IMG/VR virus record: IMGVR_UViG_3300026097_001084
Coordinates: 1 to 52,697 of that record
Reading direction: 5' to 3' (one strand)
DNA: 52,697 nt
DNA from: a virus
Taxonomy: Duplodnaviria > Caudoviricetes
Shown: positions 8,511 through 46,992 of the stretch, in pieces
Position numbering within the stretch: the first letter of the stretch is position 1
Layout of the letters: the number at the start of each line of letters is the position of its first letter
Notes under the pieces: generated by a model
What the model saw: only the letters and a program-made list of their open reading frames with translations
The model's database searches: none
What the model was told of the DNA's origin: nothing
Program-made: the position numbers and the translations under genes

Positions 8511-8511
8511 T

Positions 8512-9771: not shown

Positions 9772-10042
9772 TATCTAATTCTTTTAATCTGTTTTCTTCC
9801 TCATTTCTTAAACATCTATCGATGGATAATTGAGTGAGTTTTGTTATATTTTCTAATTTTTCTGGTTCGTGTGGGGAATTAAAACATTCAAATTTGGTAG
9901 TTTCAATTTCATTATCTTGTAAAACAATGATATGATAATCTTCATTCAAATCCTTCATACCATGAATCGCCTTACGAGATTCGTTTACTTGATTTGATGT
10001 CCAATAACCCGGTACACGAATTATGAATATTGGTTTACTCAT
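9764..10042 (-). CDS. hypothetical protein
   Basis: 92-aa ORF overlapping both neighbours. Confidence 0.65.
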   Translation of the reverse strand: MSKPIFIIRVPGYWTSNQVNESRKAIHGMKDLNEDYHIIVLQDNEIETTKFECFNSPHEPEKLENITKLTQLSIDRCLRNEEENRLKELDNE

Positions 10043-11430
10043 TATCTAAGTTTATATACGTTGAACTTTTTCTTTGGTTTCCAATTCTTAAAGGTAGTTT
10101 CAATTCCTTCAACAAGTGTATCACACATGTTCTGACGATTTAATCCCATTTCTCCCATGAATTCTTTTCTACCTTCTAAACCGGCTTCTTTTCGTTCTTG
10201 TGGTGTTTTATCGTACCAATATCTAATTGCATCAGCTACTTCATAAACATCCACTTTATCATCAATGATATAAGGAGTAGGAACTGACCCAACCATAGTT
10301 TGAACTCTCGGCCATACTGGTTTTACCCAAGAACCATGGGTTACTTTATCTTCCCAATCTCTGTAATTGTGAAGTGAACCTATTTCAATATAATCGTCTG
10401 CCGTTAAATACTTACCATCTACTTTAAATCCACATTGGTCTTGTAATCCACCTGTAACATTTACAATCGATGGAGTACCTGCCATAACTGATTCTGCAGT
10501 TACTAAACCAAATCCTTCATTACCAGCGATGTTGATTGTACAATCTGATAAATTGTATAGGTAGTTTAATTGTTCTTGTGATACCCTATCTGTTGAGAAT
10601 TTGATATCACAATCAGGTGCGAGGGTTTTTTGTACTTCAATTAAATTTGTACCATTTTGGTCTACTGGTGCAGTATGCATTATCAAACATACTTTATCTT
10701 TATCTTCTTCGGGTAGAGAATCTCTAAACTTAGAGAATGCCCAAATAACATCTGATGGTTGTTTACGTTTGATATTTCGGTTCATCCAAAAAAGTACGAA
10801 CTTGTAATCTTTATCACCTAAAACCTTTTGTCTGAAATCATGTGGTACTTCAGTTGGTTTGTATAAATCTGGATTAATTCCATGTGGTACATATGATACT
10901 TGCCAATCTTCCAATGGTTTTATTGTTTCTGATTCAATCTTACCAACACGATTGACAATACCATAAGTTTGTCTTGAAATACACCCTAACCAATCACATG
11001 ACTCGTAGTAATCTCTATTATATTTTGGGTCTGGTAAATCATCCCAAATATGGTAGAAAAGGATTGGAATATTCTGTCTTAACTCGGCCTCCATTTCATA
11101 TAACCATCTCCAATATCTTGGGTCTGTAAAGTGTAGGATTGCATCAGGTTGATGTCTCATGATTAATTCACGAAGAATATTTGCATCACCATATCCACTC
11201 CAAGGAATTAGTTTAAGAGAGGCATCTTCAATACCACTAATCTTACGAGCATCATTACCTAAATCTATTTCTTTACCTTTTTCTGGATGTTCTACTGCAG
11301 CTGCTAATTGAACCCAATCATAATGTTCAAGGGTTCCGAACACTAAATCTTTAGATACTGTTGCGATACCAGATGACATACGTAAATCATCTGATAATAA
11401 AAGAATCTTTTTCTTTTTTATTTCTGACAT
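10042..11430 (-). CDS. GT-B (GT4-like) glycosyltransferase
   Basis: SGIAT, VPHGI, NRNIKRK, NEGFGLVTAESVMAGTP. Confidence 0.9.
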   Translation of the reverse strand: MSEIKKKKILLLSDDLRMSSGIATVSKDLVFGTLEHYDWVQLAAAVEHPEKGKEIDLGNDARKISGIEDASLKLIPWSGYGDANILRELIMRHQPDAILHFTDPRYWRWLYEMEAELRQNIPILFYHIWDDLPDPKYNRDYYESCDWLGCISRQTYGIVNRVGKIESETIKPLEDWQVSYVPHGINPDLYKPTEVPHDFRQKVLGDKDYKFVLFWMNRNIKRKQPSDVIWAFSKFRDSLPEEDKDKVCLIMHTAPVDQNGTNLIEVQKTLAPDCDIKFSTDRVSQEQLNYLYNLSDCTINIAGNEGFGLVTAESVMAGTPSIVNVTGGLQDQCGFKVDGKYLTADDYIEIGSLHNYRDWEDKVTHGSWVKPVWPRVQTMVGSVPTPYIIDDKVDVYEVADAIRYWYDKTPQERKEAGLEGRKEFMGEMGLNRQNMCDTLVEGIETTFKNWKPKKKFNVYKLR

Positions 11431-15476: not shown

Positions 15477-18182
15477 TTAGAATCTATACTTCAATGAAGC
15501 GTTCCAAGTTCTTCCAAATCCAAACCAAACGGAATTATTTACATCAATACCATTCCAAGTTGTTGAACCTGCAGTAGCATGGATGTTAGAGTTTGATTCA
15601 GCGATGTAAACTGTATCAAATAAGTTATTGATGTTTACACGAGCACTAAACTTACCTAAGTAAAGAGTAGCACCTAAATCAGCTAAACCGAATGATGGGA
15701 GTTTAAGGGCACCATCGTTGTCTGGTTGTGTGAAAGCTGAATCTGTAATAGAGTAATCTGCGTAAAGACCATCTACGAAACGATATCCAAAGTCAAGGTT
15801 TAGTTTTCCTAAACGATATGCAATTTCACCAAATGAAGTGAATTGTGCAGCATCACCAACTTTAGCACCTTTGGTATAAAGTGTTCCAGTTCCAATAGAT
15901 TGTTGGTTCTCATCGAATAACTCTGCTTCGAAATCTTTAGTATATTCCCAATCACCGATTGATAACATACCACGAAGTGTTAAACGATTAGTTGGACGAA
16001 ATTCTCCTTCTACCTCAACTCCATTGTGTAATACATCAATGTTACGGAACTGAGCGAATCCATCAACACCTTGTTGGTTAGTTAATGAACGAGTTACGAA
16101 ACGATTACCCCAGGTTGTAGAGTAAGCATTCACTTTAACATCTAACTTACGAGATGTGTATCCATATCCAAGTTCTACTGAACGAATCTCCTCATTTTGT
16201 AAATCAGTATTGATTACGTTTGCGTAGTTAGGGAATACAGCATCGAATAAAGGTTGGCGAGAAATGATACCTGTGTTAAAGAACACATTTGATTTTTCGT
16301 TAAAGTTGTAGTTTGCACCACCTTTAACATATCCACCACCTTGGTTCTGAGTTTCAGAAATAGGATTTCCTGGTTGGTCAAAGTAATCGATTCTTTGGAA
16401 AGCTTGGTTTGATAAACCACCTTGTAATACTGCGGTTAGTTTTTCTTCATCGTTATACTCGATTAAACCATTAACACCTTGCCATCCAACTTTACCAATA
16501 TTGTAGTAATCAATCTTTGGGCCACGAATACCAGTATCGCGGAATGGATTAGCAGATACAGTTGTTTCAATGATTTGACCAGCAGAGTTCTTATTACCAG
16601 TTGAGTAATAACCATCTAAACCAAGTAAATCATTTAGAACACGATAGTGGTAACCTGTATAAGAACGAAGGTCTACACCAATCGAATACTTGAACTTACC
16701 GCTTTGGATATCTAATGATGAAATAGCACCAACCCAATCGTGTGAGTTCATTGAAGCTCTACGAACAAGAACTTCACGAGATACTCCATCTTCGCGGAAA
16801 CCATTTGAACCAATAAGTAATCCATCGTATTGACCTCTACCAATATCACCAGTGTAAGGAGAAGGTGATTGTTGGTTTGCAGCAACTACTGCATCAAAGT
16901 CAATAAATCCATTTGCTAAACGAGAACCTCTACCATTTTCTAAGTAATGTTCTGTTAAGTCTTTACGGAAAGGTAAAAGGTCAAGGGCACTGTTACGATA
17001 GTTGTTCCCACGAGGACCAGTTCCTCCACCACGACCTGCTGAACCATATAAAGAGGTTGCAAGTGTTACATTATCTGAAATTTTGTAATCCCAGTTAATA
17101 GTAGCAAGTGGTTTGTTGTAGAAGTTTCTACGAAGGTTGTATTCTTCACCATTTAGAACACCACCATTTGAGTTCCATCTTCTATCAATACCTGCTTCAC
17201 CGAAGTTTTGGTAATCACGAATAGAAACCCAAACATCTCTTTGGTGGTGCCATTGTCCAGCTCCTAAGAAAGAGAAGTTTAGTGAGTGTTTCGAATCATC
17301 AGGTGCATAACCCAATGCGAAGAAGTAAGTTAAACCTTCACCACTTGTGTTATAGATGTATCCATCACCTTGCCATCTTGATAATAAGATAGATGATGCC
17401 CATCCATTTTCATTTTTACCACTATTATAAACAACAGCAGTTTTTTGGAATCCATCGTTACCAACTGTTTGTGTAAGTGAACCACCCTCGGCCACATCAG
17501 CAGTTTTGGTAAAAATAGAAACAGTTCCCCCAACTGAAGGAACTGCAAGACGAGAAGCTCCTAAACCTCTCTGAATTTGGATACCACTAGCAACATCTGT
17601 TAAACCCTGCCAGTTAGACCAATAAACCCATCCATTTTCCATGTCGTTGACAGGTTGTCCGTTGATAAGGAATGAAGTGTTTCTTTGGTCAAATCCACGA
17701 AGTGAGATACGAGAATCACCATAACCCCCACCTTGCTTCGTTGCGTACACACCAGGAGTACGGTTCATAATCTCAGGAAACTCTTGGTTTCCTACTTTGA
17801 GTGCAATCTCACTCGCCTTAATAGATGATACTGCAATTGGAGTTACTCGTTCTTTCGCAACATCAATTACACCAGATGTGAGAATAACCTCATCTAATGT
17901 TTCTGCTGATAATACTAAGGAAACTGTAATTCCTTGTTTTGCAGTAACCTCTTGTGTCAAGTATCCAAGATACGAAATCACAAGTGTGTTTCCTGCGGTT
18001 GCTGAATCAATAGTAAAGTTACCATCAAAATCAGTTACAACTCCATCATTCGTTCCTTTAACGAGAATGGTTGCACCTGGTAATGGGTCATTACTATTGG
18101 AATCAACTACTTTCCCACTAATCTGTGCGAAAGTCATAAATGATGATAACATCATTAATCCAACTAATAATAGTCTTTTCAT
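15477..18182 (-). CDS. TonB-dependent outer-membrane receptor (Bacteroidota type)
   Basis: Signal peptide; N-terminal CarboxypepD_reg-like domain (PLPGATILVKGT...TDFDGNF...SYLGY); plug (TPGVY, ISLRGF, LINGQP, IQIQRG); barrel end NINNLFD...GRTWNASLKYRF with terminal Phe. Confidence 0.95.
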   Translation of the reverse strand: MKRLLLVGLMMLSSFMTFAQISGKVVDSNSNDPLPGATILVKGTNDGVVTDFDGNFTIDSATAGNTLVISYLGYLTQEVTAKQGITVSLVLSAETLDEVILTSGVIDVAKERVTPIAVSSIKASEIALKVGNQEFPEIMNRTPGVYATKQGGGYGDSRISLRGFDQRNTSFLINGQPVNDMENGWVYWSNWQGLTDVASGIQIQRGLGASRLAVPSVGGTVSIFTKTADVAEGGSLTQTVGNDGFQKTAVVYNSGKNENGWASSILLSRWQGDGYIYNTSGEGLTYFFALGYAPDDSKHSLNFSFLGAGQWHHQRDVWVSIRDYQNFGEAGIDRRWNSNGGVLNGEEYNLRRNFYNKPLATINWDYKISDNVTLATSLYGSAGRGGGTGPRGNNYRNSALDLLPFRKDLTEHYLENGRGSRLANGFIDFDAVVAANQQSPSPYTGDIGRGQYDGLLIGSNGFREDGVSREVLVRRASMNSHDWVGAISSLDIQSGKFKYSIGVDLRSYTGYHYRVLNDLLGLDGYYSTGNKNSAGQIIETTVSANPFRDTGIRGPKIDYYNIGKVGWQGVNGLIEYNDEEKLTAVLQGGLSNQAFQRIDYFDQPGNPISETQNQGGGYVKGGANYNFNEKSNVFFNTGIISRQPLFDAVFPNYANVINTDLQNEEIRSVELGYGYTSRKLDVKVNAYSTTWGNRFVTRSLTNQQGVDGFAQFRNIDVLHNGVEVEGEFRPTNRLTLRGMLSIGDWEYTKDFEAELFDENQQSIGTGTLYTKGAKVGDAAQFTSFGEIAYRLGKLNLDFGYRFVDGLYADYSITDSAFTQPDNDGALKLPSFGLADLGATLYLGKFSARVNINNLFDTVYIAESNSNIHATAGSTTWNGIDVNNSVWFGFGRTWNASLKYRF

Positions 18183-18725: not shown

Positions 18726-19046
18726 TTATTTATAAGTGTTTAGTTGACTCTCAATCTTTTTTACAAGTTCATTATCATTAATAAATGGTAAAACTTCTTC
18801 TAACAATTCTGTCATCTTTTGTTTACCTTTATATTTTGAGTATCTTTGATTTTCTCGTTCAACTTGATAAAGATGAAACGCAATTTCATCTAACCCTTTA
18901 AGTTTATCTTCGTATTTAGAAATTCTAACATCCACTACACGATTGTTATGAGATTGCTTACTTGGTGTGTATGATTTATACAACTCATCTAATCTACCTT
19001 TAAGGTATTGAATTTCCATTAACTTACGTATTTCCGAATTTGTCAT
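18726..19046 (-). CDS. hypothetical protein
   Basis: 106-aa ORF coupled (ATGA) to the upstream gene. Confidence 0.7.
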   Translation of the reverse strand: MTNSEIRKLMEIQYLKGRLDELYKSYTPSKQSHNNRVVDVRISKYEDKLKGLDEIAFHLYQVERENQRYSKYKGKQKMTELLEEVLPFINDNELVKKIESQLNTYK

Positions 19047-19492
19047 AACTTTAATTTTAACTTAGTTATTTCTTTTTTATCAGTTCCATAATCTTCACAC
19101 AATTCCTTAATTCGTACTTTACCACTTCTGGTTGAATAAAGTATTTTTGTATATTCATGTGCATCGGTTAAAGAAACCTCATAATGTTTTGCAACCAATT
19201 CTACCAACCATTTTTCATATTTATCAGCAGTTGCTGGTTTCATATACTTTAAAAACTGTCTACCTTTTGGTAAAAAATCTATTAAAGCAAGATAAAGTGC
19301 TTTAGGTGGTACCTCTTGTAAAGCTGGTTGTAATGCAGCGATGGTTTCTACCCAATCTGGATTCATAGAAAGGAAACGAAATACCATATAGTTAGACCAA
19401 GTTTTCTTATCACTTTCATCTAACTTATCCCAATACTTAGGGTCTTGGGTATTGGTAATTGCCTTTATGTGGTCAAATAGGGTTGCTGCCAT
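19043..19492 (-). CDS. clamp loader small subunit (T4 gp62-like)
   Basis: KKTWSNYMVFRFLSM and LPKGRQFLKY resemble gp62; directly downstream of the gp44 homolog. Confidence 0.75.
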   Translation of the reverse strand: MAATLFDHIKAITNTQDPKYWDKLDESDKKTWSNYMVFRFLSMNPDWVETIAALQPALQEVPPKALYLALIDFLPKGRQFLKYMKPATADKYEKWLVELVAKHYEVSLTDAHEYTKILYSTRSGKVRIKELCEDYGTDKKEITKLKLKL

Positions 19493-20439
19493 TATATCAT
19501 TCTGTTAATTTCAGTTAAACACCCAGCCATTGCAATCTCTTTATCAATTGAATGGAAGTGGTTTGTCTGTCCTTGTGATAATGCAATTATAACATTACCA
19601 ATATTATCACCACCAAACTCATCAACTTTATCATAAAGTAGTGTAAACAAATCTGTAAAATCGGTTACTTTACTATCAATCAAAGTTTGTCTTAATTTCA
19701 TGTAACGATTTCTTGGGTCATCTTTGGATTTAAGAAGTTCCAATATCTTTACCTTATAGTCATTTTCCAATAAATCTTTGGTATCTACTTGAAGTTTGCC
19801 TTTGTTAGAATTTAATTGACAGGTATTGATTATTTTACGAATATCAGGATATCCTGCATCTATAATTGGTACCAAATCTTTAGGTTCAAATTCGATACCT
19901 TCTTTTGTAAGTATCTTGGATATCTGAACTGCTACATCTTTTTTAGTTGGAGGTACAATCTGAAATGATTGACAACGAGATTGGATTGGGTCAATTACTT
20001 TCTCAACATAGTTACAAGTTAAAATAAATCTACAATGTCCACTAAACGTTTCCATCAAGTTACGAAGGATAGCTTGTGCATTTTGAGTCATGTAATCGAA
20101 CTCATCAAGTATGATAATCTTCCATTTCTTAAATCCTTGTGATGATGCGAAGTTAGTAACTTTGTTACGAACTGTTTCTACATTGTTTTCAGATGATGCG
20201 TTTATAATCATATAATCACAATCAACCGATTTAACAATTAGTTTAGCTAATGTAGTTTTACCGGTACCTGCTCTACCATATAATAAAAGATGAGGTACAT
20301 CACCCGTTTCTAAGTAACCCTCTACTTTAGATTTTAAATGTTCGTTACCTACATAATCTTCTAACTTGGTGGGTCTGTATGATTCCACCCAAAGGGAGTT
20401 ATCCACTTTTTCTTCTTGGGTTTGTTCAAAAAATGCCAT
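19492..20439 (-). CDS. clamp loader AAA+ subunit (T4 gp44/RFC-like)
   Basis: LWVESYRP, GRAGTGKT, ILDEFD, SRC motif, PDIRK. Confidence 0.95.
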   Translation of the reverse strand: MAFFEQTQEEKVDNSLWVESYRPTKLEDYVGNEHLKSKVEGYLETGDVPHLLLYGRAGTGKTTLAKLIVKSVDCDYMIINASSENNVETVRNKVTNFASSQGFKKWKIIILDEFDYMTQNAQAILRNLMETFSGHCRFILTCNYVEKVIDPIQSRCQSFQIVPPTKKDVAVQISKILTKEGIEFEPKDLVPIIDAGYPDIRKIINTCQLNSNKGKLQVDTKDLLENDYKVKILELLKSKDDPRNRYMKLRQTLIDSKVTDFTDLFTLLYDKVDEFGGDNIGNVIIALSQGQTNHFHSIDKEIAMAGCLTEINRMI

Positions 20440-20672: not shown

Positions 20673-21890
20673 TTATCTTCCTACTTCTTGTAGGTATTTT
20701 TGTTTCATTTCTTCCCAACTCATTCCAATTGCATCTATATAATACAAATGGTCTGGTTTCAACCTACCCTCATCATGTAGTTTTGAGTAACGTTTGATTG
20801 CTTGCCTCTTCCACCACTTATTGATGTAACCAGTACCTTCTTCAAACTTTTTCTTCATAACCAATTTATCTTCTTCTATTTCAGAACGAAGAAACTCTGG
20901 TCCATTTTCGTACATCATTGCAAGATATACTCCACGTTTAAATCCATGGTGATATGCGGATTGTTTAATACCACACTCTTTGAATATCTGCCCAAGGATT
21001 TTTTGTTTAATACCACTCACAGGTCCACTAGCACCTTCACCAGTACCCATACTTTTACCATTACGGATTCGTTCGTTAGTGATGGCACTTTTATACCAAT
21101 CAGCACGATTTTCTTTTAACCATTGATGCCAAGGGTCATAAAATTCATCATCTGGTTTTAATGATATTTTACCAGCGGATTCACCTAAAGTTTTGAAATG
21201 AGGAATACCATTGTACTGAGAATGAATTCCATAAAGAGAAGTTGTACCAACTGCAATTAGAGTTTGTCCATATTTCTCTTTCCAAAAGTTTCTAACTTCA
21301 GGTACAGTAGTCATCATTGCGGTAAGTTTACCACCTAAAAAGTTGTATCCCAATGGCTGGGTACATACAATTGTAGAAGCGATAGTTGTATAATTCAACT
21401 TACCCTTCTTAAATTTATCATCTTTAGTCCAACCAATGTAGTTATCTCTAACTCCCATTGATGTAACATCACTAGCAAGTGATACTAATCCTAATAATTT
21501 ACCTGATGTTCTATCCTTGATTGTAATTTTAACATTACGACCTGGGTTAGCAGTCCAACTCATTGTATGAATCATTCTACGAAGATGGGTCCACTTTGTT
21601 GATGCAGCGGCATCATCAACTATTTCAACATAGGGGTCTAACGATTCAATTTCTTGAATCGTTAACTCCTTATTGTTTATATCAGTTGGTTTCCATTGTA
21701 AATCATAAAGGGATGCAATCGTGGATTTATCACGAATCATAGAATCTTCTTGCAATTCAACCCACTTCTTATATAATGTCTGTTCTTCAACAGTCATTGT
21801 CATAAGGTAATCCATATTCTCAATGAGTTTTTTCTTCTCATTTTCGAATATAAATTCAGGTTTAGCTGATTCTGTTTCCCAAAAACTCAT
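20673..21890 (-). CDS. DUF4338 (DruA-like) protein, putative Mom-related GNAT-fold enzyme
   Basis: PGRN, RDNYIGW, QPLGYNFLGGKL, TTSLYG-x-HSQYN, HGFKRGVY motifs. Confidence 0.7.
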   Translation of the reverse strand: MSFWETESAKPEFIFENEKKKLIENMDYLMTMTVEEQTLYKKWVELQEDSMIRDKSTIASLYDLQWKPTDINNKELTIQEIESLDPYVEIVDDAAASTKWTHLRRMIHTMSWTANPGRNVKITIKDRTSGKLLGLVSLASDVTSMGVRDNYIGWTKDDKFKKGKLNYTTIASTIVCTQPLGYNFLGGKLTAMMTTVPEVRNFWKEKYGQTLIAVGTTSLYGIHSQYNGIPHFKTLGESAGKISLKPDDEFYDPWHQWLKENRADWYKSAITNERIRNGKSMGTGEGASGPVSGIKQKILGQIFKECGIKQSAYHHGFKRGVYLAMMYENGPEFLRSEIEEDKLVMKKKFEEGTGYINKWWKRQAIKRYSKLHDEGRLKPDHLYYIDAIGMSWEEMKQKYLQEVGR

Positions 21891-21891
21891 A

Positions 21892-22587
21892 TTACTTAAT
21901 CTCTACTAAATAATAATTAGAAACGTAATCACCTTCTGTAAATGCAAGATGTGCTAACCCTTGAGATGAAATCTTCAAGGATGAAGTATTTGAACCTTTA
22001 TTAGCAACTAAGATTGCTTTAAGGTATTTTGCTGAGAATTGAATTGGTTCAACATCACCATCACAGGTACAATCAACAGTGATTGAAATTCGGTTAGAGT
22101 TAATTGAAGAATACCCTAAAATGATTTCTCCTTTATTATCCTTACAGGTAAATGTAAATGTATCAGCATCTGCCAATGCTCCCTTAGATTTGATAAATTT
22201 GTTTATAAACTCATCATCCAATGTAACATCTACATTAAATGGTGGTAATGCTTTCAAATCAGGTACCGCTGGGATAACTGAAGGTGCTGCCAACATATAC
22301 TGCATCTTAGTTCCCTTATCCGAGAATTTAAGTGCACCTGGTGTTTCTTCTACTTTAATTGAAGTATCCAATACACTCATCAACCCTTTTAACTGAGAAG
22401 TTGTGTAAATACCGAATTCACCATTTGGGAATTCCATATCTGCAACAGATACATCACCTAAAAGTGTCTTGTCATCAGATATCATACGAACTGTAAGATT
22501 TGTACCTTCTGATTTAATCATAACCGATTCTACTTCACCACCGAGATTATATCGATTGATGAAACCATCTAATTTTTGTTTTTCCAT
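21892..22587 (-). CDS. DNA polymerase sliding clamp (T4 gp45-like)
   Basis: 231 aa, EFGIY motif, C-terminal KISSQGLAHLAF...NYYLV; adjacent to the clamp loader. Confidence 0.85.
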   Translation of the reverse strand: MEKQKLDGFINRYNLGGEVESVMIKSEGTNLTVRMISDDKTLLGDVSVADMEFPNGEFGIYTTSQLKGLMSVLDTSIKVEETPGALKFSDKGTKMQYMLAAPSVIPAVPDLKALPPFNVDVTLDDEFINKFIKSKGALADADTFTFTCKDNKGEIILGYSSINSNRISITVDCTCDGDVEPIQFSAKYLKAILVANKGSNTSSLKISSQGLAHLAFTEGDYVSNYYLVEIK

Positions 22588-22625
22588 AATTTAAATTTAA
22601 TATAACTTTATTTATTTTGTTCATA

Positions 22626-22657
22626 CAAAGATACGAAATACTTTGTTGGGTTCCAAA
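22626..22657 (-). promoter_or_regulatory. Bacteroidota sigma-A type promoter
   Basis: TTTG-N20-TATCTTTG, perfect consensus, upstream of the clamp gene. Confidence 0.8.
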
Positions 22658-22675
22658 TCTTTTTAGATTTATTTA

Positions 22676-24432
<1,757 letters not shown>

Positions 24433-24495
24433 GTTATTTTTATTTATTATTATATGTTATTGTATGTTCAATATCAGTACCACAAGTGGGTAACC

Positions 24496-24508
24496 TGACA
24501 TATTGTCA
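24496..24508. promoter_or_regulatory. palindrome TGACA-N3-TGTCA, candidate operator at the groEL promoter
   Basis: Perfect inverted repeat immediately downstream of the -7 element. Confidence 0.5.
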
Positions 24509-24510
24509 TA

Positions 24511-24542
24511 CAAAGATAAGAAATTTATTTGGATTATCCAAA
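24511..24542 (-). promoter_or_regulatory. Bacteroidota sigma-A type promoter
   Basis: TTTG-N20-TATCTTTG upstream of the groEL unit. Confidence 0.8.
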
Positions 24543-27059
24543 TTAAAAGGAGAAAAACTTTTCTGCTGTCTTTTGGTCACTCATAACATCACCCCAATCC
24601 AATGCTCCATAAAAATCTTCAAGTTTCTTTAATAACTCTCGTTCAAAGATTTTATCATGATTAATATAAGTTTTAATTAAATCCATGATTTGTGGTGGGT
24701 CATTATAACCATTAAAACCAACTGCATCTAATCCAAATGGATTTTGTTTAAGATATACCCACTTAATCTTATCACCATCCTTTAAAGGTTCAAATTGATT
24801 TTCAACCCCAAAGTGTTTTAATAATTGATTATATGCGATTGATGCTTTTACGTGTGCGGGTGTACCACTAGCAAATTGGAACATTGCCGTTTGGTCTTTT
24901 TTCTTAGGCATGTACTTTGATAAGTTTTTAACTGCTCCAGCTTTTGCAATCTTAACAACATCCATGTTTACCAAATCTTTTTTGAATGCATGAACTTTAT
25001 CGGTAAGTTGTTCTTCAGTATCACCTCTTAGGATTTCAATCAGAACTTCACTCATAAACTTTCTAAAAGCGGCTGGGTATGATGAACGTACAACATCCAA
25101 TCCCTTTACATCTAACTTATCAACAGGTACACCATTATCTGAAATAATCCATTGTGCGTATCTTTTCTTTGCAATCCATATACCAGCTTTAGAAACGAAT
25201 TCCTTTTTAATCTCCAATCTATGTTTATCTATATTGAAAACTTTTTTGGCAAGAATATTATAAAAGTTATTTAGATAATCTTGCATCTCACCTGCTATAT
25301 CATTTACATAACCAGCGATAACATCTTGTTCGTTATCTTTCCAATTTGGAATTCTATGGTCTAAGAGAGGAGCTGCGGAAAAGAATACAGAATCAGTATC
25401 AATATATATGTTAGAGTCAGCATCAGGAGTACCCAACTCCTTGTTGTACTTGATGTTAGCCATATCAGCCGTGCTTTTAATAACCGTCTGACCGGTTGTG
25501 GTAACAGCGGTAGCATTATCAACATCATAGAACCGAAAGGCAGGAAGACCAAGCACCCCATATAAAGAGTTAAGAAGAATCTTTTGTACCAACTGTCTTT
25601 TTTTGTAAAAAGCGTATTTCTCTTTTTCACCACTATCCCCATATTGTTTTTCTAACTTTCTAAATTCTACCCTTTGTTTAAACCAAGTATCTAATATATC
25701 AGGAATACACCCAACTACATCGGTTCGGTATAATACACCATTTGATGCTATTGAGAATTTAGATTTATCTAAATATTCTTTTAGATTTTCTTTGGAGATT
25801 GCATCTTCTCCGATATAATAAGTATCAACTTCACCTTTAATGAATTTCTGTGCATCCCAATCTTTAATCTTACCAACTTTCGTTTCTGGTGAGATATTAA
25901 TACTCATAATAATGGATGGATATAGGGAAGTTAAATCCAAATCATATATCCATTCATACTTACCAACGATTGGTGCTTTTACATATGCTCCAATAAACTT
26001 TTCTTCGTTATTATCACGAAGTGCTTGCATTCTCTCCTGTCTATCTGCTGGTTTATTTGGTGCTACAATATTCTTACGTTTAAGATAAGTTAACATTGCT
26101 CCTTCAAGATACTTTGATGAATAAACAAAATCTTCATAAGGTACATGTCCTGCGTGACAGATACCACGAGCAGTATCAATGAATTGTAATTTTTCATCAA
26201 ACTGAACTACCAATTCAACATCCACTAAGTTATACTCAATGAATTTTTCAATATCATCTCTAAATAAGATATCCAAGTTACCATCATATTCAATCTTACC
26301 TTTACCCAATTCTCGTTGAGCAATAGAATCCAATCTATATGAATCTAATTCAGAGTAGGTAAAGTTCTTGTAAAGGGATAGGTAATCTAAATAAGATACA
26401 CCAGCCATAAAATATCTTTTACGATAAGGAGACCAGAAACATTGTCCGATTGGTGATAATCTATTTGCATGTTTCTCACCTAATAATCGTTTTATACGAT
26501 TGTATAACATAGGTGTATCGAAATAATCAATATTCCAACCCGTAACGATTGTTGGATTAATCATTTCGTAGAGTTCCAAATACTTCATCAACATATCTCG
26601 TTCATCCTTAAATGGAATTACGATTGCTTTATCAGTAGTTTTCTCTACCATTAACCCGTCTTTATCCATTACCAATACCCAGTATTGATTGGTAGCAGAA
26701 TCATGGAGTGCGATTGATGTTAATTCGTTTGTAGCTTCTTCTGGATTTGGCAATCCACTTGTCATCTCACACTCAATATCGTAAGTGAGTATAACATGTC
26801 CTTCTGAAGGTAAATCCGAATCAGTATAAATATCTACTAAAACTCTTGTAGTTTCTGGTACATCAGATTCAAACAAGTTTTTATCATCTTTACTATATCT
26901 ATGAATTTTAGTTACCTTATCCCCATATAAAGTAGTATATTCACCTCGTTCTGCTCTTTCATAGGCATATCGAGTATATGGAAATGTTCTGTAACCTTGC
27001 TTATCATCCCAAAGATGGACAAGATTCTTTTCTCGCTGGTAATATACGTTCTTGTACAA
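24543..27059 (-). CDS. polB: family B DNA polymerase (T4 gp43-like), TTG start
   Basis: Exo motifs YDIE, GWNIDYFD, YNLVD; pol motifs DLTSLYPSII, KILLNSLYG, YIDTDS, KKRY. Confidence 0.97.
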   Translation of the reverse strand: MYKNVYYQREKNLVHLWDDKQGYRTFPYTRYAYERAERGEYTTLYGDKVTKIHRYSKDDKNLFESDVPETTRVLVDIYTDSDLPSEGHVILTYDIECEMTSGLPNPEEATNELTSIALHDSATNQYWVLVMDKDGLMVEKTTDKAIVIPFKDERDMLMKYLELYEMINPTIVTGWNIDYFDTPMLYNRIKRLLGEKHANRLSPIGQCFWSPYRKRYFMAGVSYLDYLSLYKNFTYSELDSYRLDSIAQRELGKGKIEYDGNLDILFRDDIEKFIEYNLVDVELVVQFDEKLQFIDTARGICHAGHVPYEDFVYSSKYLEGAMLTYLKRKNIVAPNKPADRQERMQALRDNNEEKFIGAYVKAPIVGKYEWIYDLDLTSLYPSIIMSINISPETKVGKIKDWDAQKFIKGEVDTYYIGEDAISKENLKEYLDKSKFSIASNGVLYRTDVVGCIPDILDTWFKQRVEFRKLEKQYGDSGEKEKYAFYKKRQLVQKILLNSLYGVLGLPAFRFYDVDNATAVTTTGQTVIKSTADMANIKYNKELGTPDADSNIYIDTDSVFFSAAPLLDHRIPNWKDNEQDVIAGYVNDIAGEMQDYLNNFYNILAKKVFNIDKHRLEIKKEFVSKAGIWIAKKRYAQWIISDNGVPVDKLDVKGLDVVRSSYPAAFRKFMSEVLIEILRGDTEEQLTDKVHAFKKDLVNMDVVKIAKAGAVKNLSKYMPKKKDQTAMFQFASGTPAHVKASIAYNQLLKHFGVENQFEPLKDGDKIKWVYLKQNPFGLDAVGFNGYNDPPQIMDLIKTYINHDKIFERELLKKLEDFYGALDWGDVMSDQKTAEKFFSF

Positions 27060-28205
27060 TTAACTTAATTTTTTGTGAAGTTCAACAATCATTTTATCTT
27101 CATTGGAAGATAACTCATGAGCTCTTTGAATTGCTTTAATAGATTGTTCATTTTTAAATATATCATCATCTAAAAATTTATCTAACAATTCAAAGAATTC
27201 TTTTTTCTTTGTAAAGAATAAACCATTAGGGTCTATCTCTTTATAACAATCAGATGATTGCCATAACATAGGAGTTCCATTCATCATACAATCAGTACCA
27301 CTTACTGACCAACCATGATTAGTTTGTTTCATCTGAACACCAACTGTACAATCTTGTAATCGTTTGTAATATTCATGTTTAGGTACTCGTGTATTATCAA
27401 TCCAAGAATGAGGAACCCTTCCAGTTAATTGAGGTACCCAAACCACAAAATCTTGTCGTTTAGTGTAATATTCCTCCATTAATTTAATGAATTTAGGATA
27501 TCCCTTATAAGCAGCTGGTCTATGATTGAATACAATAATCTTTCTTTTATCATTGGATGGGGTTGGTACTATCTTATCTTTTGGTAATCCTAAATTCCAG
27601 ACAGTAAGAATATCATCTAACTTATTTACAAATTCATCATTAAACATTTCCTTTGCTTCCAATAAAACTCTATTCTTTTGGTCTTGTGTATTTAGATAAC
27701 AAGTTTCCATTTGCGAAATACCCAATAACTCAATAGGTAACCACATCCATTTTGCTTTACCTTCTCGTCTATCTATCCCATTACATGGTAGGTGTTTACT
27801 ACCCTCAAACCAATGAGAATAACCAATGATTTTAGTCCCAAATTTTGCATATCTACCAACTTGTGGCCAATCAGGCAAATGGGAATATATTACATCATAT
27901 TCAGTATCCTTTAATACTTTAATTAAATCAACCGATGGGAATGCCCGTTGATTCATCATATCACCGGGTATATGAATCCCAATTTGCTTTACATTGTGTT
28001 TAGGTAGGGTATTTAATTTTTTAGTAACATTACCCTTTGGTACCAATACAGTAAAATGATATTCACCATGATTATCCAATGCCTTAATATGATTATAAAT
28101 TACATCTATAAATGAATCTTTTTCAATGTTAGATGAGTTTGTAATATTTGGTATTACCAACACTTTCCTAGCGTTTTTGTAATCTATTGCTTCCCAAAAA
28201 TTCAT
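27060..28205 (-). CDS. GT-B glycosyltransferase, candidate DNA-modifying
   Basis: YDVIYSHLP, IVFNHRPAAYKGY, GWSVSGTDCMMNGTP; directly upstream of polB. Confidence 0.7.
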   Translation of the reverse strand: MNFWEAIDYKNARKVLVIPNITNSSNIEKDSFIDVIYNHIKALDNHGEYHFTVLVPKGNVTKKLNTLPKHNVKQIGIHIPGDMMNQRAFPSVDLIKVLKDTEYDVIYSHLPDWPQVGRYAKFGTKIIGYSHWFEGSKHLPCNGIDRREGKAKWMWLPIELLGISQMETCYLNTQDQKNRVLLEAKEMFNDEFVNKLDDILTVWNLGLPKDKIVPTPSNDKRKIIVFNHRPAAYKGYPKFIKLMEEYYTKRQDFVVWVPQLTGRVPHSWIDNTRVPKHEYYKRLQDCTVGVQMKQTNHGWSVSGTDCMMNGTPMLWQSSDCYKEIDPNGLFFTKKKEFFELLDKFLDDDIFKNEQSIKAIQRAHELSSNEDKMIVELHKKLS

Positions 28206-30253
28206 TATTCAGCTCTCCTTTTCCATTTAACAAAAGTATCAATAGATTCTTGATAATCAAGAACTTTGTCACGGTTATCACTTTTTTGATACTTTTTAAT
28301 CTGCGCTTCACATAACTTAATCATAACATCACAAGCATCTACAAATGTCCCACCATCATCAACTAAATTTCTATCAAATGAATCACTTATGTAGTTATTA
28401 TACTTTTTAGATAATGGAAACCAAAACTTAAATTCTTTTTGTGGATTTTTACTTCTAAATGATAGGTGATGACTTTCATAATTACCAATTTCTACCCACT
28501 CACCACTACTTGGACACAAATACAATTTAGTATCGGTGTGCTTTAATTTATCAGTAACATACTTCATTGAATCAGTCCTACTCCATAAAGAAGTATCGGT
28601 TGCTGATGCTTGTTCGTTAACTTCAGTTACAAATGCTTTAGTAGTAAACAAACCATTAAATACTTTGTATCTATTCAATGAAGTTGCTTTTTCATCTCCA
28701 ACAAACTTATCTGAATTATTTAAGAAGTATTTTTCAAAGTTATTGTTAAATACATCCATAACTGCATTAGCCCAATCGCCAACCGATTGAGAAGATGGTA
28801 GAGTATCTAATATAACATGAGATAAATTAATAAGTTGATATGGTGTGCTGAATCTCAAATCAGCTACACACCCTCTATTGTAACTTATTAACTTATATTG
28901 TTGTTTATCAACTACGTTTAGTTGTTCTGAATCAATTACATTTGCATTTTTTAACAAATTACTTAATTCATCTTTGAATTGTTGCTCCCACATTTTTCTC
29001 TTTTCATCAAATATCATCAATCTTTTAATAAAATCAACGTTAGTAAAATGATATGCAAGAGAAATTCCGTTTTGGATATATTGGATTGTGGTTTTATCAT
29101 CTTCAATTACTAATGAACTAAATAGATTTAAATATCTGTCTCTAACACTATCAACCAGTCCATAAGTTTTCCACATTTCATTTTGCCAATATGGACCAGA
29201 GCCATATCCTCTAGCAACTGATTCAATTGAATTTTTCTTTAATGGTTCTAAGTGATAACTAACAACACCATCATTATTATGCGAATGTATTCTTGAAATA
29301 AGAAGGTTGTTAATAAAAATCAAATACTGGTCATAGTTCATTTCAGTATAATCTTTACTAGTCAAATCATATGAAAATGTCTTTGGTAAGTATTTTGAGA
29401 AATTAAAACCAGTTCTATTAAATAGTGGAATATTTGGTATTAAATTGGATAGTAATCCACGCTCGTTATCTAATTCATACTCAACATCATACAATAAAGA
29501 GTTTAATTTACTACCATCTAATTCAGTTTTTACACGTTGAGTTACTGAGTGAGATGAAATGTGTTCATTCAACTTTTTCATTAAAGTACTTGCACCCTTT
29601 GATGTAGTGAAGTGAACCTTACCGGTTAATTTAGTTTTATTTGTATCAGATACATAAGTTTGAAACTTTGGGTAATATTCAATAATATCATTGATATCAA
29701 ATTCAGATTGTGTTAGATTTACGGAAAACTCTTTAAGTATAGACCATACTTTGGAATATTCAAAATCAAATCCATCAGATTCACGTCTGATAATAACATT
29801 CTCCAAATCATCCGATTTGAATTTTTTATTATTAAGAATAGTATCTGAAAATGAAAATGTTTGATGCTGACCATCGTAACAATAAATTAATCCATTAAAC
29901 TCTTTATCAATTAACACGACAATATGTGCATTTGGAGCCGTATTACCATCAAGAATATCAAATATTTGTTCTAATTGATATTCACCAGTTTGTCTTTCTG
30001 CTTTGGTTTGTTGTTTTGGTCTAACCAATCTCAATCGTTTTGTATTCAATTTCTCAGCCTCCAATGGGTTATCATAGAACTTAATAAGTTCAGATACACC
30101 AGTATCGATGAAGTTTAATGAAAATTGAAATGTTGATTTTTGTTTGGTTTCCGATGCCAATTTCCAGGTGGAATAAAATCGGTTGTAGGTTTTTTCAACA
30201 TCCGTATCGGATAAGTTGATTAATTCATTTCCGTAAAATTCGTTTTCTTTCAT
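28205..30253 (-). CDS. divergent DUF262/ParB-like plus C-terminal HNH-like protein (GmrSD-like)
   Basis: RPKQQ...IFDILDG...YCYDGQHQ...MKKLN; C-terminal CPSSG...YESHH...PLSKKYN. Confidence 0.5.
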   Translation of the reverse strand: MKENEFYGNELINLSDTDVEKTYNRFYSTWKLASETKQKSTFQFSLNFIDTGVSELIKFYDNPLEAEKLNTKRLRLVRPKQQTKAERQTGEYQLEQIFDILDGNTAPNAHIVVLIDKEFNGLIYCYDGQHQTFSFSDTILNNKKFKSDDLENVIIRRESDGFDFEYSKVWSILKEFSVNLTQSEFDINDIIEYYPKFQTYVSDTNKTKLTGKVHFTTSKGASTLMKKLNEHISSHSVTQRVKTELDGSKLNSLLYDVEYELDNERGLLSNLIPNIPLFNRTGFNFSKYLPKTFSYDLTSKDYTEMNYDQYLIFINNLLISRIHSHNNDGVVSYHLEPLKKNSIESVARGYGSGPYWQNEMWKTYGLVDSVRDRYLNLFSSLVIEDDKTTIQYIQNGISLAYHFTNVDFIKRLMIFDEKRKMWEQQFKDELSNLLKNANVIDSEQLNVVDKQQYKLISYNRGCVADLRFSTPYQLINLSHVILDTLPSSQSVGDWANAVMDVFNNNFEKYFLNNSDKFVGDEKATSLNRYKVFNGLFTTKAFVTEVNEQASATDTSLWSRTDSMKYVTDKLKHTDTKLYLCPSSGEWVEIGNYESHHLSFRSKNPQKEFKFWFPLSKKYNNYISDSFDRNLVDDGGTFVDACDVMIKLCEAQIKKYQKSDNRDKVLDYQESIDTFVKWKRRAE

Positions 30254-30307
30254 AACTTTTCCTTTAGTTAATTAATTAATCGAGGTACTCAGACCTCCTT
30301 TGTTATA

Positions 30308-30339
30308 CAAATATACGTAATTTATTTTAATTATCTAAA
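30308..30339 (-). promoter_or_regulatory. Bacteroidota sigma-A type promoter
   Basis: TTTA-N20-TATATTTG. Confidence 0.65.
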
Positions 30340-30408
30340 TATTTTTTTAAATATTTATCACTATCTAAATAAATTAATTATGTCATATCTCTCATCTTGA
30401 TTACATAG

Positions 30409-30439
30409 TAAATATACAACAATATTTGAGATATTCAAA
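30409..30439 (-). promoter_or_regulatory. Bacteroidota sigma-A type promoter (second, tandem)
   Basis: TTTG-N19-TATATTTA. Confidence 0.55.
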
Positions 30440-30467
30440 ATTTAAAATGTTAAAGTTTTGTTAAAAT

Positions 30468-31262
30468 TTACCAAAAATTTACTTTATTTTCTGATTCGAT
30501 AGTTTCATAGTGTTCTATCTTTGGTAAATAATCTTCTAAGTTCTTTGGATAAGGATAAACTTTGTGTTTCAATTTTGATTTCAACTTCTTAGTTTCTCCT
30601 TTAGTTTGACCTAATATCTGAATGTATCTATTCTTAGGTGCTTCTTTCTTTCTCCAAAATTCTTTATAACCATCTTTACCAACTGCCTCTTTTAGTTTTT
30701 CTATATTATGTGAACCCCACTTAGAAAATACAGTTCTTGAATGTATCCACTTATAAGGGTCTTTAGTTAATGATATACTAAAGTTTGGCATCAGTTGTAT
30801 TTGTGATGTATCTTGGAATAACCAATTTGTTGCTTGGTAAATTCCACCAAGATGTCCTTGCTCAGAATCAGAATAAGAAATCAACATCTTTATATTAGGT
30901 GCATTTTCTTTTAACCACTTAAAAGATTGTCCCATTGAGTATGATTCAATATTAGAACCATAACCATCGTGTATGAACAATCGTGTTAACTCTAAACACT
31001 CATCTTTGCCCAATCCATCAATTACCGAAGTTACTGCTGACCTACCCACTGGATATCCATAAATAAGACAACCTATGAGTTGTTCAGTATTACCCAATAC
31101 ATCTTCGGTATCGGTTTCGTAAAATATACCAAGTGCATACCTACACATTGAAAATGCGTGTGTATAATGATACTTTACAATCATATCCTTACCAGCTGCT
31201 TTACTGATTTCTCTGATTGTAATTTTGGATGTATCCACGTAATGTTTATTCTCCTCCTTCAA
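30468..31262 (-). CDS. Mom-like adenine modification enzyme (GNAT fold)
   Basis: IVKYHYTH, LELTRLF, LISYSDSEQGHLGGIYQATNW. Confidence 0.85.
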   Translation of the reverse strand: MKEENKHYVDTSKITIREISKAAGKDMIVKYHYTHAFSMCRYALGIFYETDTEDVLGNTEQLIGCLIYGYPVGRSAVTSVIDGLGKDECLELTRLFIHDGYGSNIESYSMGQSFKWLKENAPNIKMLISYSDSEQGHLGGIYQATNWLFQDTSQIQLMPNFSISLTKDPYKWIHSRTVFSKWGSHNIEKLKEAVGKDGYKEFWRKKEAPKNRYIQILGQTKGETKKLKSKLKHKVYPYPKNLEDYLPKIEHYETIESENKVNFW

Positions 31263-32007
31263 TTGGTTCTAATTTGCGAATTTCCATTTCTTCAATTTCA
31301 GTATTCTTTGAATATGGTAGTGATGGATGTTTTAAATTTTTCAATAACTTTCTTCTCTCACCACCCTTTGAAAGAATATAAACGTATCTATGCTTTCTTG
31401 GTTCTTTTCTAATCCAAAATGGCTTAGTTACCTGCTTCTGAATTTCTGTGGGGTTATTGGTACCATAGTATGGAAATATAGTTCTACCATGTTGCCACTC
31501 ACCATTTTCATCAAACTTAAATGACCAACTATCATTAAATCGTAAAGAGTTTCCTTGGTAAATCCAATTGGTTGCTTGATATATAGTTCCAGCGTGTCCT
31601 TCTTTCGGGTCTGAATATGATATCAATCCCTTCACTTGTGGTACATTTTCTCGTAACCAATCAAATGTCTTTCCTAAGAACCAACTTTCTATATTAGAAC
31701 CATACCCATCAAAAACAAATAATCTTACCAATTCCAAAACTTCGGTTCTATCTAACATTTCAGATATAGATTGTCCACTCAACCTACCAATTGGGTCACC
31801 ATAACATGCAACTCCAATTAATTTATCTTCAACACCACTAAAGAATGGGTGTTCTTCTATATCGGAAGTAAATAAACCAATAGCGTAAGAAACCTTTGTC
31901 CACAATCCACTATAATGATTATTGATAATGATATCTTTCGCTACCGATTTGTTTATAGCTCTTATTGATAATTTAGAAGTATCACAATATACCTTATCCT
32001 CTTTCAT
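31246..32007 (-). CDS. Mom-like adenine modification enzyme (GNAT fold), paralog
   Basis: IINNHYSG, LELVRLF, LISYSDPKEGHAGTIYQATNWIYQG, KHRYVY. Confidence 0.85.
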   Translation of the reverse strand: MKEDKVYCDTSKLSIRAINKSVAKDIIINNHYSGLWTKVSYAIGLFTSDIEEHPFFSGVEDKLIGVACYGDPIGRLSGQSISEMLDRTEVLELVRLFVFDGYGSNIESWFLGKTFDWLRENVPQVKGLISYSDPKEGHAGTIYQATNWIYQGNSLRFNDSWSFKFDENGEWQHGRTIFPYYGTNNPTEIQKQVTKPFWIRKEPRKHRYVYILSKGGERRKLLKNLKHPSLPYSKNTEIEEMEIRKLEPIEGGE

Positions 32008-32207
32008 AAACTACCAGACCAAAATTCGTTTAGATGTTGCCATGTTTGCATCCTAACTATTTTGATAACGTTGGCAGGAGATACTCTATTATTACGAGCT
32101 ATTACAGCTACATTACGATGTCCCATCGCCCATAACTTTCTTATTTGTATAACCTGCTCATCCGTTAGTTTAGCGCTAGGATGAGACTGACCTCTTAATA
32201 TTGGCAT
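32004..32207 (-). CDS. stand-alone HTH resembling the C-terminal DNA-binding domain of HNH homing endonucleases
   Basis: RGQSHPSAKLTDEQVIQIR...IARNNRVSPANVIKIVRMQTWQHL. Confidence 0.7.
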   Translation of the reverse strand: MPILRGQSHPSAKLTDEQVIQIRKLWAMGHRNVAVIARNNRVSPANVIKIVRMQTWQHLNEFWSGSL

Positions 32208-32258: not shown

Positions 32259-32525
32259 TTATGCACTTTTTATTTCATTTAGTGCATTGGTGTAAGCCAT
32301 TTCAGATTGTAATCCAGCGAATCTCTGAACTTCCTTACCATCTACTTCTACCACTACAGTAGGTACCGAACGAATTGAATATTTTTGAGCAATTTCAAAA
32401 TCTTTATCAACATCTACATCTAAGAATGATATTTCATTGAATTTAGATTTTACATTTTCCATAACAGGTGTTAACATTTTACAAGGTCCACACCACACTG
32501 CGTAGAATTTTTTTACTTCAATCAT
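32259..32525 (-). CDS. trxA: thioredoxin
   Basis: WCGPC and SVPT. Confidence 0.95.
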   Translation of the reverse strand: MIEVKKFYAVWCGPCKMLTPVMENVKSKFNEISFLDVDVDKDFEIAQKYSIRSVPTVVVEVDGKEVQRFAGLQSEMAYTNALNEIKSA

Positions 32526-42525: not shown

Positions 42526-42526
42526 A

Positions 42527-42661
42527 TTACTCTTCTTCAAAAATTGAATCTAAAGATTGTTGTAGTTTTTGGATTTTTAATTTGTCATCCACCGAAGGAG
42601 TTTTTATAGTCTTTAACTTTAAAAGTTCTTCTGTCATTTGTTTTAATTGGTCTGATAACAT
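42527..42661 (-). CDS. small hypothetical coiled-coil protein (44 aa)
   Basis: Manual translation MLSDQLKQMTEELLKLKTIKTPSVDDKLKIQKLQQSLDSIFEEE*. Confidence 0.55.
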   Translation of the reverse strand: MLSDQLKQMTEELLKLKTIKTPSVDDKLKIQKLQQSLDSIFEEE

Positions 42662-45766: not shown

Positions 45767-45767
45767 A

Positions 45768-46991: not shown

Positions 46992-46992
46992 A

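Follow-up and report, generated by a model that had tools for sequence, protein, structure and literature searches.

Mom of phage Mu is a GNAT that transfers glycine from Gly-tRNA(Gly) to the N6 of adenine in double-stranded DNA, and its product rearranges to N6-carbamoylmethyl-adenine, according to the portion of the report available to us (Silva et al. 2026, PMC13219725). The same portion describes Mu Mom as a tight dimer whose W48A form is monomeric and nearly inactive, and whose activity depends on H58, Y59, R111, S124, D149, R151, Y159, W48, W181 and a helix-turn-helix (HTH)-like insertion, R151 being essential and the insertion being essential for work on DNA (PMC13219725). Metagenomic Mom homologues assayed there were active on DNA, and its authors state that the substrate of a GNAT is not predictable from structure (PMC13219725). 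Here we report a tandem pair of Mom-family genes, MomA and MomB, among the replication genes of an uncultured phage, IMG/VR record IMGVR_UViG_3300026097_001084, whose complete 52,697 bases were analyzed (hereafter, the window). Both proteins look active, their duplication is old and the pair is a trait of a clade of relatives; we consider it likely that they modify DNA. For the locus as a whole, which also encodes a DruA/DUF4338-family protein and a GT-B glycosyltransferase (GT), the explanation that fits best, and towards which we lean, is that a large T4-like phage, probably of flavobacteria, carries within its replication operon a conserved module for DNA modification. That the GT or the DruA-like protein makes a second unusual base is a tentative proposal, and one that we would sooner doubt than assert.

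The Mom operon, with lengths in amino acids (aa), consists of the following genes:

32004-32207, minus strand: s67, HTH-like gene of 67 aa, first of the Mom operon
31246-32007, minus strand: MomB, Mom-family GNAT of 253 aa (PF25680, 1.4e-42)
30468-31262, minus strand: MomA, Mom-family GNAT of 264 aa (PF25680, 2.6e-44)

MomA and MomB score 151.7 and 146.1 bits, respectively, against PF25680 (curated cut-off 27.1), matches that were confirmed in a six-frame search, and the PHROG 'Mom-like' family likewise matches both. The two proteins are 43% identical over 257 aa, and the solved structure of Mu Mom (chain 8bv8) is matched by MomB at 2.8e-9, upholding the tandem Mom-like paralogs proposed in a first-pass annotation of the window. 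Aligned with Mu Mom, both retain H58, Y59, R111, S124, D149, Y159, W181 and H183. Relatives of the locus were collected by an alignment-seeded scan of IMG/VR, in which 539 candidate stretches were confirmed; the best 80 of these 539 were used which, with locus L007, gave 81 loci. Among the unique sequences from the MomB (B) and MomA (A) lineages, H58, Y59, R111, S124, Y159 and H183 are invariant (58/58 and 54/54), D149 is retained in 57/58 and 49/54, and W181 in 57/58 and 51/54. Both lineages also have the stretch that aligns with the HTH-like insertion of Mu Mom (Mu residues 175-209). Because the catalytic residues of Mu Mom are conserved in both, the two paralogs look catalytically competent, neither resembling a dead copy, and by homology we infer DNA as the substrate and a charged tRNA as the donor.

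The arrangement of the operon is conserved. MomB orthologs, defined by at least 59% identity, were present in 70 of the 81 loci. MomA lay 3´ of MomB in 60 of the 63 loci that could be assessed (those with at least 300 bases downstream), being absent in L067, L069 and L078. It was the next gene in 33 loci, mostly overlapping MomB by 17 or 14 nt, and was separated from MomB by one or two small open reading frames (ORFs; 50-175 aa) in the other 27 of 60 pairs (e.g., L040:6793-7062 and L045:4770-5024). Of the 66 loci assessable for s67, 61 had this gene directly 5´ of MomB. With dozens of related contigs sharing it, this arrangement is far beyond chance and is a clade trait. Each of five relatives of 176-245 kb with a completeness rating of 92-100% had two Mom matches and no more. 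None of the 272 isolate phage records that matched Mom had it at two places, so that the pair typifies this uncultured clade and is rare in isolates.

Phylogenetic analysis placed the A and B lineages each on one branch, with support of 99 and 98, respectively, in a FastTree analysis of 61 of 137 rows (every third locus, 17 in all, together with the window pair and all of the 25 remaining Moms). The same tree also contains a separate third Mom lineage; the Mom duplication is old. In the more distant loci L076-L086, one Mom lies between the sliding clamp and the clamp loader, the gap that holds the DruA-like gene in the window, and a third-lineage Mom is placed before DUF1599. The third lineage was also noted at L038:10058, L063:2664 and L068:2055, and some genomes hold three Moms.

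The small gene s67 overlaps the MomB start with its stop, by 4 nt in the window and by 4, 1 or 17 nt in 34, 14 and 7, respectively, of the 61 loci. Its consensus is strongly conserved across 52 unique sequences. No Pfam match was found for s67, which matches just the C-terminal part of two phage HNH-endonuclease PHROGs (phrog_20467, 6e-6), presumably their DNA-binding part. The small HTH gene that the first-pass annotation had placed before the Mom pair is thus there, its HTH character resting on this likeness. The protein has no cysteines and so is not a Com-type zinc finger. In Microbacterium phage BarnCat (L093:2085-2953), a gene annotated as HTH overlaps that of a Mom-family 'acetyltransferase', and the latter in turn overlaps the DNA polymerase I gene; this is the same gene logic as in the window (HTH, Mom, polymerase), with an HTH protein unrelated to s67 (no similarity, E 0.21). 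Given com in Mu, the unrelated HTH gene in BarnCat and s67 here, a small nucleic-acid-binding gene overlapping mom recurs with unrelated proteins. We suggest that s67 may be a regulator or a DNA-targeting helper.

Around the operon, the replication block on the minus strand reads ribonucleotide reductase (RNR) large subunit, thioredoxin, s67, MomB, MomA, spacer, X682, GT-B, PolB, GroEL, clamp, DruA/DUF4338, a 73-aa ORF, clamp loader and clamp-loader subunit A:

32259-32525, minus strand: thioredoxin
30254-30467, minus strand: AT-rich spacer of 214 nt, 3´ of the Mom operon, read from the sequence
28205-30253, minus strand: X682, orphan of 682 aa between the Mom pair and the GT
27060-28205, minus strand: GT-B glycosyltransferase, GT4-like by predicted fold, 381 aa
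24543-27059, minus strand: PolB, family-B DNA polymerase (PF00136, PF03104; phrog_262, 3.9e-188)
22676-24292, minus strand: GroEL/Cpn60, full-length (PF00118, 6.8e-76; phrog_5725, 1.3e-177)
21892-22587, minus strand: sliding clamp, gp45-like (phrog_223 'DNA polymerase processivity factor', 3.8e-14; no Pfam match)
20673-21890, minus strand: DruA/DUF4338-family protein of 405 aa (PF14236, 6.5e-19)
19492-20439, minus strand: clamp-loader AAA+ subunit (PF00004, PF13177)
19043-19492, minus strand: clamp-loader subunit A

Every gene named in the first-pass annotation was recovered in its place on this strand. The GT-B gene abuts polB, as had been noted, its end (27060) meeting the PolB gene start (27059), and the DUF4338 protein is indeed wedged between the clamp and the clamp loader, with the 73-aa ORF also intervening before the latter. 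DUF1599 and MazG genes, which had been counted in the same set, are present as weak matches (24.5 bits against a cut-off of 25 and 22.5 against 22, respectively); they sit among gp32, RecA and RNR genes, a common setting for them in T4-like phages, and no tie to the Mom genes was seen. The closest PolB from an isolate is that of Microcystis phage Mel-JY01 (190 kb; 50.6% amino-acid identity), followed by those of T4-like cyanophages and pelagiphages at ~30%. The GroEL gene, between PolB and the clamp in the window, is missing at that place in Mel-JY01. A promoter of its own had also been attributed to the Mom pair, a claim that found no confirmation: sigma-70-like sites numbered 35 in the window, with 36.3 expected from shuffles, and the Bacteroidetes-type TAnnTTTG motif 88, with 80.7 expected, so that neither was enriched. 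A TATATTTG motif (minus strand, 30308-30315) occurs in the spacer, 55 nt ahead of the following gene, and the spacer might possibly serve as a promoter.

Several proteins of the block share aromatic residues at a free chain end. MomA ends in NFW, and 56 of 59 orthologs have a C-terminal FW and another 2 a YW; MomB lacks such a tag (0/67 orthologs end in an aromatic pair). The DruA-like protein starts with MSFWE, and M-x-FW is found in 13 of 14 orthologs. The GT starts with MNFWE, and an N-terminal FW is present in 15/15 members of the window GT's subtype and in 4/26 of the other subtype. PolB ends in KFFSF, and all 21 full-length orthologs end in F after FF or F-x-F, their final residues being FF (8), AF (7), GF (5) or SF (1). 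The window clamp loader starts with MAFFE. A terminal aromatic pair occurs in 7 of 64 window ORFs, 5 of these 7 being in the replication block, with FW occurring 19 times in total. Free aromatic chain ends bind the T4-type clamp, the C-terminal tail of T4/RB69 gp43 being an example. The conservation of the tags suggests that MomA, the DruA-like protein and the GT dock on the sliding clamp, and we propose the product of 21892-22587 as the docking partner of the tagged enzymes. A complex prediction for the clamp and the last 60 residues of MomA, run without controls, scored 0.24 against a mark of 0.32.

The DruA-like protein scores 68.6 bits against PF14236 (DruA, formerly DUF4338; cut-off 27) and matches PADLOC DruA1 at 2e-17. 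In metagenomes, 3171 of 7998 candidates scored matched the family at E <=0.001, falling into 1377 clusters at 50% identity. An AlphaFold2 (AF2) model from a 58-row alignment had a mean predicted local distance difference test score (pLDDT) of 93.8 and a predicted TM-score (pTM) of 0.90. The weak PDB fold matches listed for this model (E 5e-3 to 6e-2) all have the acyl-CoA-transferase fold and include p300/CBP histone acetyltransferase, several GNATs, malonyl-CoA decarboxylase and TmcA. In BFVD, Foldseek returned five strong matches, all DruA-like proteins of phages and giant viruses, followed by weak GNATs. The predicted core is probably GNAT-like. A closer likeness to Mom, raised in the first-pass annotation, did not hold up in structure or profile comparisons: BLASTP gave E 0.74, hhalign gave probabilities of 1.7% and 0.45%, a Mom model ranked 33rd among the BFVD matches (E 0.11) and Mu Mom 8bv8 was not in the top 50 PDB fold matches. 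The giant-virus proteins are from Faunusvirus, Yasminevirus and Dasosvirus (BFVD A0A3G4ZXG3, A0A5K0UAJ3 and A0A3G4ZRA1).

The position of the DruA-like gene within the block varies among relatives. It adjoins MomA, the GT or PolB in nine loci (L029, L034, L035, L058, L061-L064 and L068) and lies 3´ of the clamp in four loci and the window. In cyanophage S-SM2 (L178:5806-6864), a DruA-like gene without the FW start is found between the clamp-loader genes gp44 and gp62, and 2 of 10 long DruA homologues scanned carry an N-terminal ParB_N domain (P0126 and P0135). The varied replisome and Mom neighbours, the gp44-gp62 place in S-SM2 and the ParB_N fusions favour work on DNA or at the fork. The 31 isolate records with a DruA homologue comprised 25 Synechococcus phages, 3 Pelagibacter phages, 2 entries named 'Marine virus' and 1 cyanophage; cultured carriers include S-SM2, S-SSM7 and HTVC008M. 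DruA-like proteins in six Synechococcus phages were noted previously, in the portion of a Phold preprint available to us. The Druantia partners DruB-DruE are absent beside the window gene, whose neighbours are the clamp, the 73-aa ORF and the clamp loader, so that it encodes a DruA-family protein rather than belonging to a Druantia system.

The AF2 model of the GT (pLDDT 83, pTM 0.79) has the two-Rossmann GT-B fold. Its best Foldseek match is MshA 3c4q (E 1.7e-11, TM 0.71), followed by PglA, PimA/B, BshA and GlgM, with at least 500 fold matches at E <=0.001; by this model it is a GT4-like GT-B. The GT chain 9iqz of phage HY126, from a DNA arabinosyltransferase context, ranks 30th (E 2.5e-9, TM 0.60). 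T4 AGT and BGT, to which the GT had been likened, were not among the 50 fold matches listed, nor did a PDB sequence search return either, the GT profile giving chance matches only. The likeness thus gave way to one with GT4 enzymes such as MshA, PglA and PimA. Among 16 members of the GT family, there were weak matches to three GT-B families, in 7, 6 and 3 cases. The first-pass annotation had staked a role for the GT in DNA modification on its linkage to polB in relatives, and 32 of 41 loci keep the GT-B gene abutting PolB; DruA abuts PolB in 6, and 3 differ.

We searched for a base to which a sugar could be attached. No enzyme making a hydroxylated or hydroxymethylated pyrimidine was found in the window (~28% of the genome), and no hydroxymethyl-pyrimidine route was seen in the near-complete relatives. 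Exactly one thymidylate-synthase homologue is encoded by four of these five relatives; the one inspected retains PFN and L-P-P-C-H motifs, which we take to be the positions of two diagnostic residues, an Asn and a Leu. The Asn and Leu mark true dUMP-methylating thymidylate synthases, according to the available portion of the source (PMC13326640). Because the relatives carry ordinary ThyA, no hydroxymethyl-pyrimidine sugar acceptor is in sight. The thymidylate synthase of the 245-kb relative (L174:191-1261) is 356 aa long, ~90 aa above the usual length, with an insert before the conserved RSVDTFLGLPFN segment.

X682 had no Pfam, PHROG, PADLOC or PDB match, the last including a PDB profile search. 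None of its 33 database relatives has a Pfam domain, a Pfam scan of 24 members being null. The slot that it occupies, between MomA and the GT, held 51 ORFs of at least 150 aa in loci L007-L074, forming at least 18 BLAST-unrelated groups (16, 8, 5, 4, 3 and 3 members, the rest singletons). They include a GHKL ATPase (L028:7624-9144), the 16-member group, which matches the PADLOC defence model NsnA, and PLOD-type GTs in four loci (e.g., L012:10164-10853); the 595-aa gene of L007 at this place is unrelated to X682. The slot is a hypervariable swap slot, and X682 need not belong to the modification chemistry. Language-model features of X682 point weakly to HNH/GmrSD nucleases (0.91, few features in common), and its alignment shows conserved YDGQH and ESHHLxFRS motifs. 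We take these to be motifs of a GmrSD-like DUF262 + HNH nuclease, an assignment that is a lead only.

The window is rated 28% complete; the full genome of this T4-like phage is roughly 190 kb, of which the window is about 28%. All long ORFs are on the minus strand, the G+C content is ~31%, and no near-identical record was found in a phage-record search. One gene bears on the host:

15477-18182, minus strand: SusC-type TonB-dependent receptor (CarboxypepD_reg, Plug and barrel)

This gene has a local G+C of 0.39, against 0.31 for the phage, and shares 74-79% identity with genes of Flavobacteriaceae, which makes a marine flavobacterium of that family the probable host. The receptor gene, a host-derived outer-membrane transporter gene, is present in relative L022 too. 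Elsewhere on the minus strand of the window we noted a glycan gene block (767-11430) with a sulfotransferase, an NAD-dependent epimerase, a Glyco_trans_1_2 protein, a UDP-glucose dehydrogenase, a GT2 and two transferases of the 'GT4-conflict' type. A flavin-dependent tryptophan-halogenase family gene (PF04820, 3e-96) has 2-oxoglutarate (2OG)-Fe(II) oxygenase genes on both flanks (45143-47601, minus strand), and a further 2OG oxygenase gene is found at 41863-42540. A DNA/RNA non-specific endonuclease (51356-51955, minus strand; PF01223, 1.4e-24) could degrade unmodified host DNA.

The reading that we favour is a DNA-modification module whose core would be an operon encoding two old Mom paralogs and a small HTH-like protein. 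On the strength of homology to Mu Mom, each Mom would be a dimeric GNAT, flipping an adenine out of double-stranded DNA and placing on its N6 an amino acid taken from a charged tRNA, and the modified adenine would shield phage DNA against host restriction. If both Moms are active, they may differ in sequence context or donor, or may pair as a heterodimer. The Phe-Trp tags, C-terminal on MomA and N-terminal on the DruA-like protein and the GT, together with the Phe-rich PolB tail, would provide sliding-clamp docking, and clamp-docked enzymes would mark new DNA right behind the fork. Of the hypermodification set that the first-pass annotation had seen among the replisome genes, a conserved set of candidate DNA-modifying enzymes with the Mom pair at its core stands; the resemblances of DruA to Mom and of the GT to AGT/BGT fell away. 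The most elaborate version of the idea, a replication-coupled line of two Moms that differ in aminoacyl-tRNA donor or sequence context, a DruA-family acyltransferase and a GT, tethered to the clamp by Phe-Trp and making one or more compound adenine adducts (e.g., aminoacylated and then glycosylated) on nascent phage DNA, we regard as improbable.

Several observations weigh against a module of this kind. The window Moms are only 27-30% identical to Mu Mom, from which their substrate and donor are taken, and two Mu residues are not kept. At the R151 position, MomB has K and MomA has E; the B lineage as a whole has K, N or V there, and the A lineage G, E or F. R is never found at this position in the 112 A- and B-lineage sequences, nor in 6 of 7 isolate Moms, so that R151 is not family-wide; the position of the dimer residue W48 is S, N or A in both lineages, i.e., not conserved. 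No tRNA genes were found in the window, leaving a phage tRNA as the Mom donor without support there. In a quick IQ-TREE run of 137 rows, the B branch had a support of just 68.6, and the figure for the A branch is from FastTree only. Among the GTs, 22 of 41 lack the tag, and the distant loci with a clamp-loader gene did not show its MAFFE start. The DruA-like model had no PDB match at E <=0.001, its acyltransferase likeness coming from the matches at E 5e-3 to 6e-2, and one of the five near-complete relatives has no DruA. The Pfam matches of the GT are below cut-off (19 bits against 28.5 and 17.1 against 25), its best fold matches are retaining GT4 enzymes acting on small molecules and lipids, and 7 of 41 loci have no GT near PolB.

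A narrower explanation, to us a somewhat unlikely one, is that only the HTH-Mom-Mom operon modifies DNA, the DruA-like protein, GT-B and X682 being unrelated accessory cargo in plastic replisome gaps with roles in counter-defence, superinfection exclusion, or host small-molecule or surface glycosylation. Accessory genes gather in gaps between core replisome genes in T4-like phages. The Mel-JY01 backbone runs thioredoxin, two small genes, PolB, a 250-aa gene, HolB and clamp-loader A, with no Mom, GT, orphan, GroEL or DruA at the corresponding places, a further point against the module; since the core order (thioredoxin, PolB, clamp, clamp loader) is shared, these genes are accessory inserts between core genes. 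GroEL occupies the same kind of gap as the putative cargo, the slot 3´ of MomA has at least 18 unrelated families, GHKL ATPase and NsnA-model match included, and DruA varies in place and is missing from 1/5 near-complete relatives. The GT's nearest folds are MshA, BshA, PimA and the biopterin glucosyltransferases, and the canonical ThyA of the relatives leaves no hydroxylated base as a sugar acceptor. However, a terminal FW conserved on MomA (56/59), DruA (13/14) and the GT subtype (15/15) makes wholly unrelated cargo hard to hold, the GT abuts PolB in 32/41 loci, DruA directly adjoins MomA or the GT in several loci, and the ParB_N fusions point to DNA.

A different question is whether the pair acts as one enzyme. 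MomA and MomB might form an obligate heterodimer that tagged MomA brings to the clamp, making one modification and one unusual base, an arrangement that we judge possible and rather less probable than its converse. Consistent with it, the pair is found together in 60/63 loci, mostly with overlapping genes, the tag is on MomA only (56/59 against 0/67 for MomB), and each of the five near-complete relatives has exactly two Moms; the tight Mu Mom dimer and nearly inactive monomeric W48A form, in the portion of the report available, point the same way (PMC13219725). The full catalytic set is retained in both lineages, however, and neither Mom is therefore a mere scaffold; a third Mom lineage exists in some relatives, the Moms of L077-L085 are at separate places (the clamp/clamp-loader gap and before DUF1599), and small ORFs separate the pair in 27/60 cases. 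A substrate other than DNA for the paralogs, either RNA or protein (they could acylate a tRNA or a replisome protein, for instance), we consider highly unlikely. Such a role would fit the low identity to Mu Mom and the widely varying substrates of GNATs, unpredictable from structure according to the same available text (PMC13219725). Against it are the presence of the region aligned with the Mu HTH-like insertion, the retention of W181 and H183, the location of the Mom genes among replication genes and the activity on DNA of the tested metagenomic homologues, as the available text has it (PMC13219725). The conserved operon of two active-looking Moms is the firm part of the module; action tethered to the clamp, with the DruA-type protein and the GT4-like enzyme as additional clients, is likely, and is what we infer from tags and gene context.

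Mom was long a single-gene curiosity of phage Mu, its tRNA-dependent chemistry being solved only in 2026. Here, large aquatic phages of an abundant clade maintain two active-looking Moms as a fixed pair within their replication operon. Were the tags to bind the clamp, DNA would be modified as it is made, with the nucleotide pool unaltered. If the multi-enzyme line were true, it would give DruA, a defence-system protein, its first biochemical role and hint at the action of type I Druantia or at what that system senses. The locus also provides leads on the function of DruA, on the basis of donor and target choice by Mom, and on which restriction systems marine flavobacteria deploy against such phages. 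A literature search found no description of twin Moms, of the terminal tag or of a DruA function; the supplements of PMC13219725 (mutant screens and homologue networks) lay outside this search and may show multi-Mom contigs.

Compared with known systems, the terminal tags resemble the clamp-binding tails of T4 and RB69 in being short aromatic peptides at a free chain end of replication-block proteins, PolB here ending in FFSF, but differ in that a bare Phe-Trp dipeptide is found at either chain end and on modifying enzymes. The DruA-like protein is above threshold for both PF14236 and PADLOC DruA1, as is DruA of type I Druantia; in contrast to that defence setting, it occurs in a phage, has no partner genes and bears an N-terminal FW tag, and its relatives are in cyanophages, pelagiphages and giant viruses. 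The GT shares the GT-B fold with T4 AGT and BGT and with the arabinosyl-5-hydroxycytosine system of RB69, DLP3 and HY126, as described in the available portion of the source (PMC13326640). Its place beside PolB recalls T4, where b-gt and gene 42 lie beside gene 43. Unlike in these T4/RB69-type systems, its best matches are GT4 enzymes of cell metabolism, and no thymidylate-synthase-like hydroxylase or hydroxymethylase was seen in the window or near-complete relatives.

The closest counterpart remains Mu Mom (PF25680, 8bv8). The window Moms belong to the same family and share its active-site residues together with W181 and H183, and in both phages a small nucleic-acid-binding gene, com in Mu and s67 here, overlaps the mom start. 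Mu R151 and W48 are not retained in the window clade, and the terminal FW tag of MomA is a further difference from Mu Mom. The upstream partner in Mu is the Com zinc finger, whereas here it is an HTH-like protein without cysteines. Mu has one mom gene at the end of a transposable phage, whereas this clade has two old paralogs, and in some relatives three Moms, with the pair set within the replication operon of a lytic T4-like phage.

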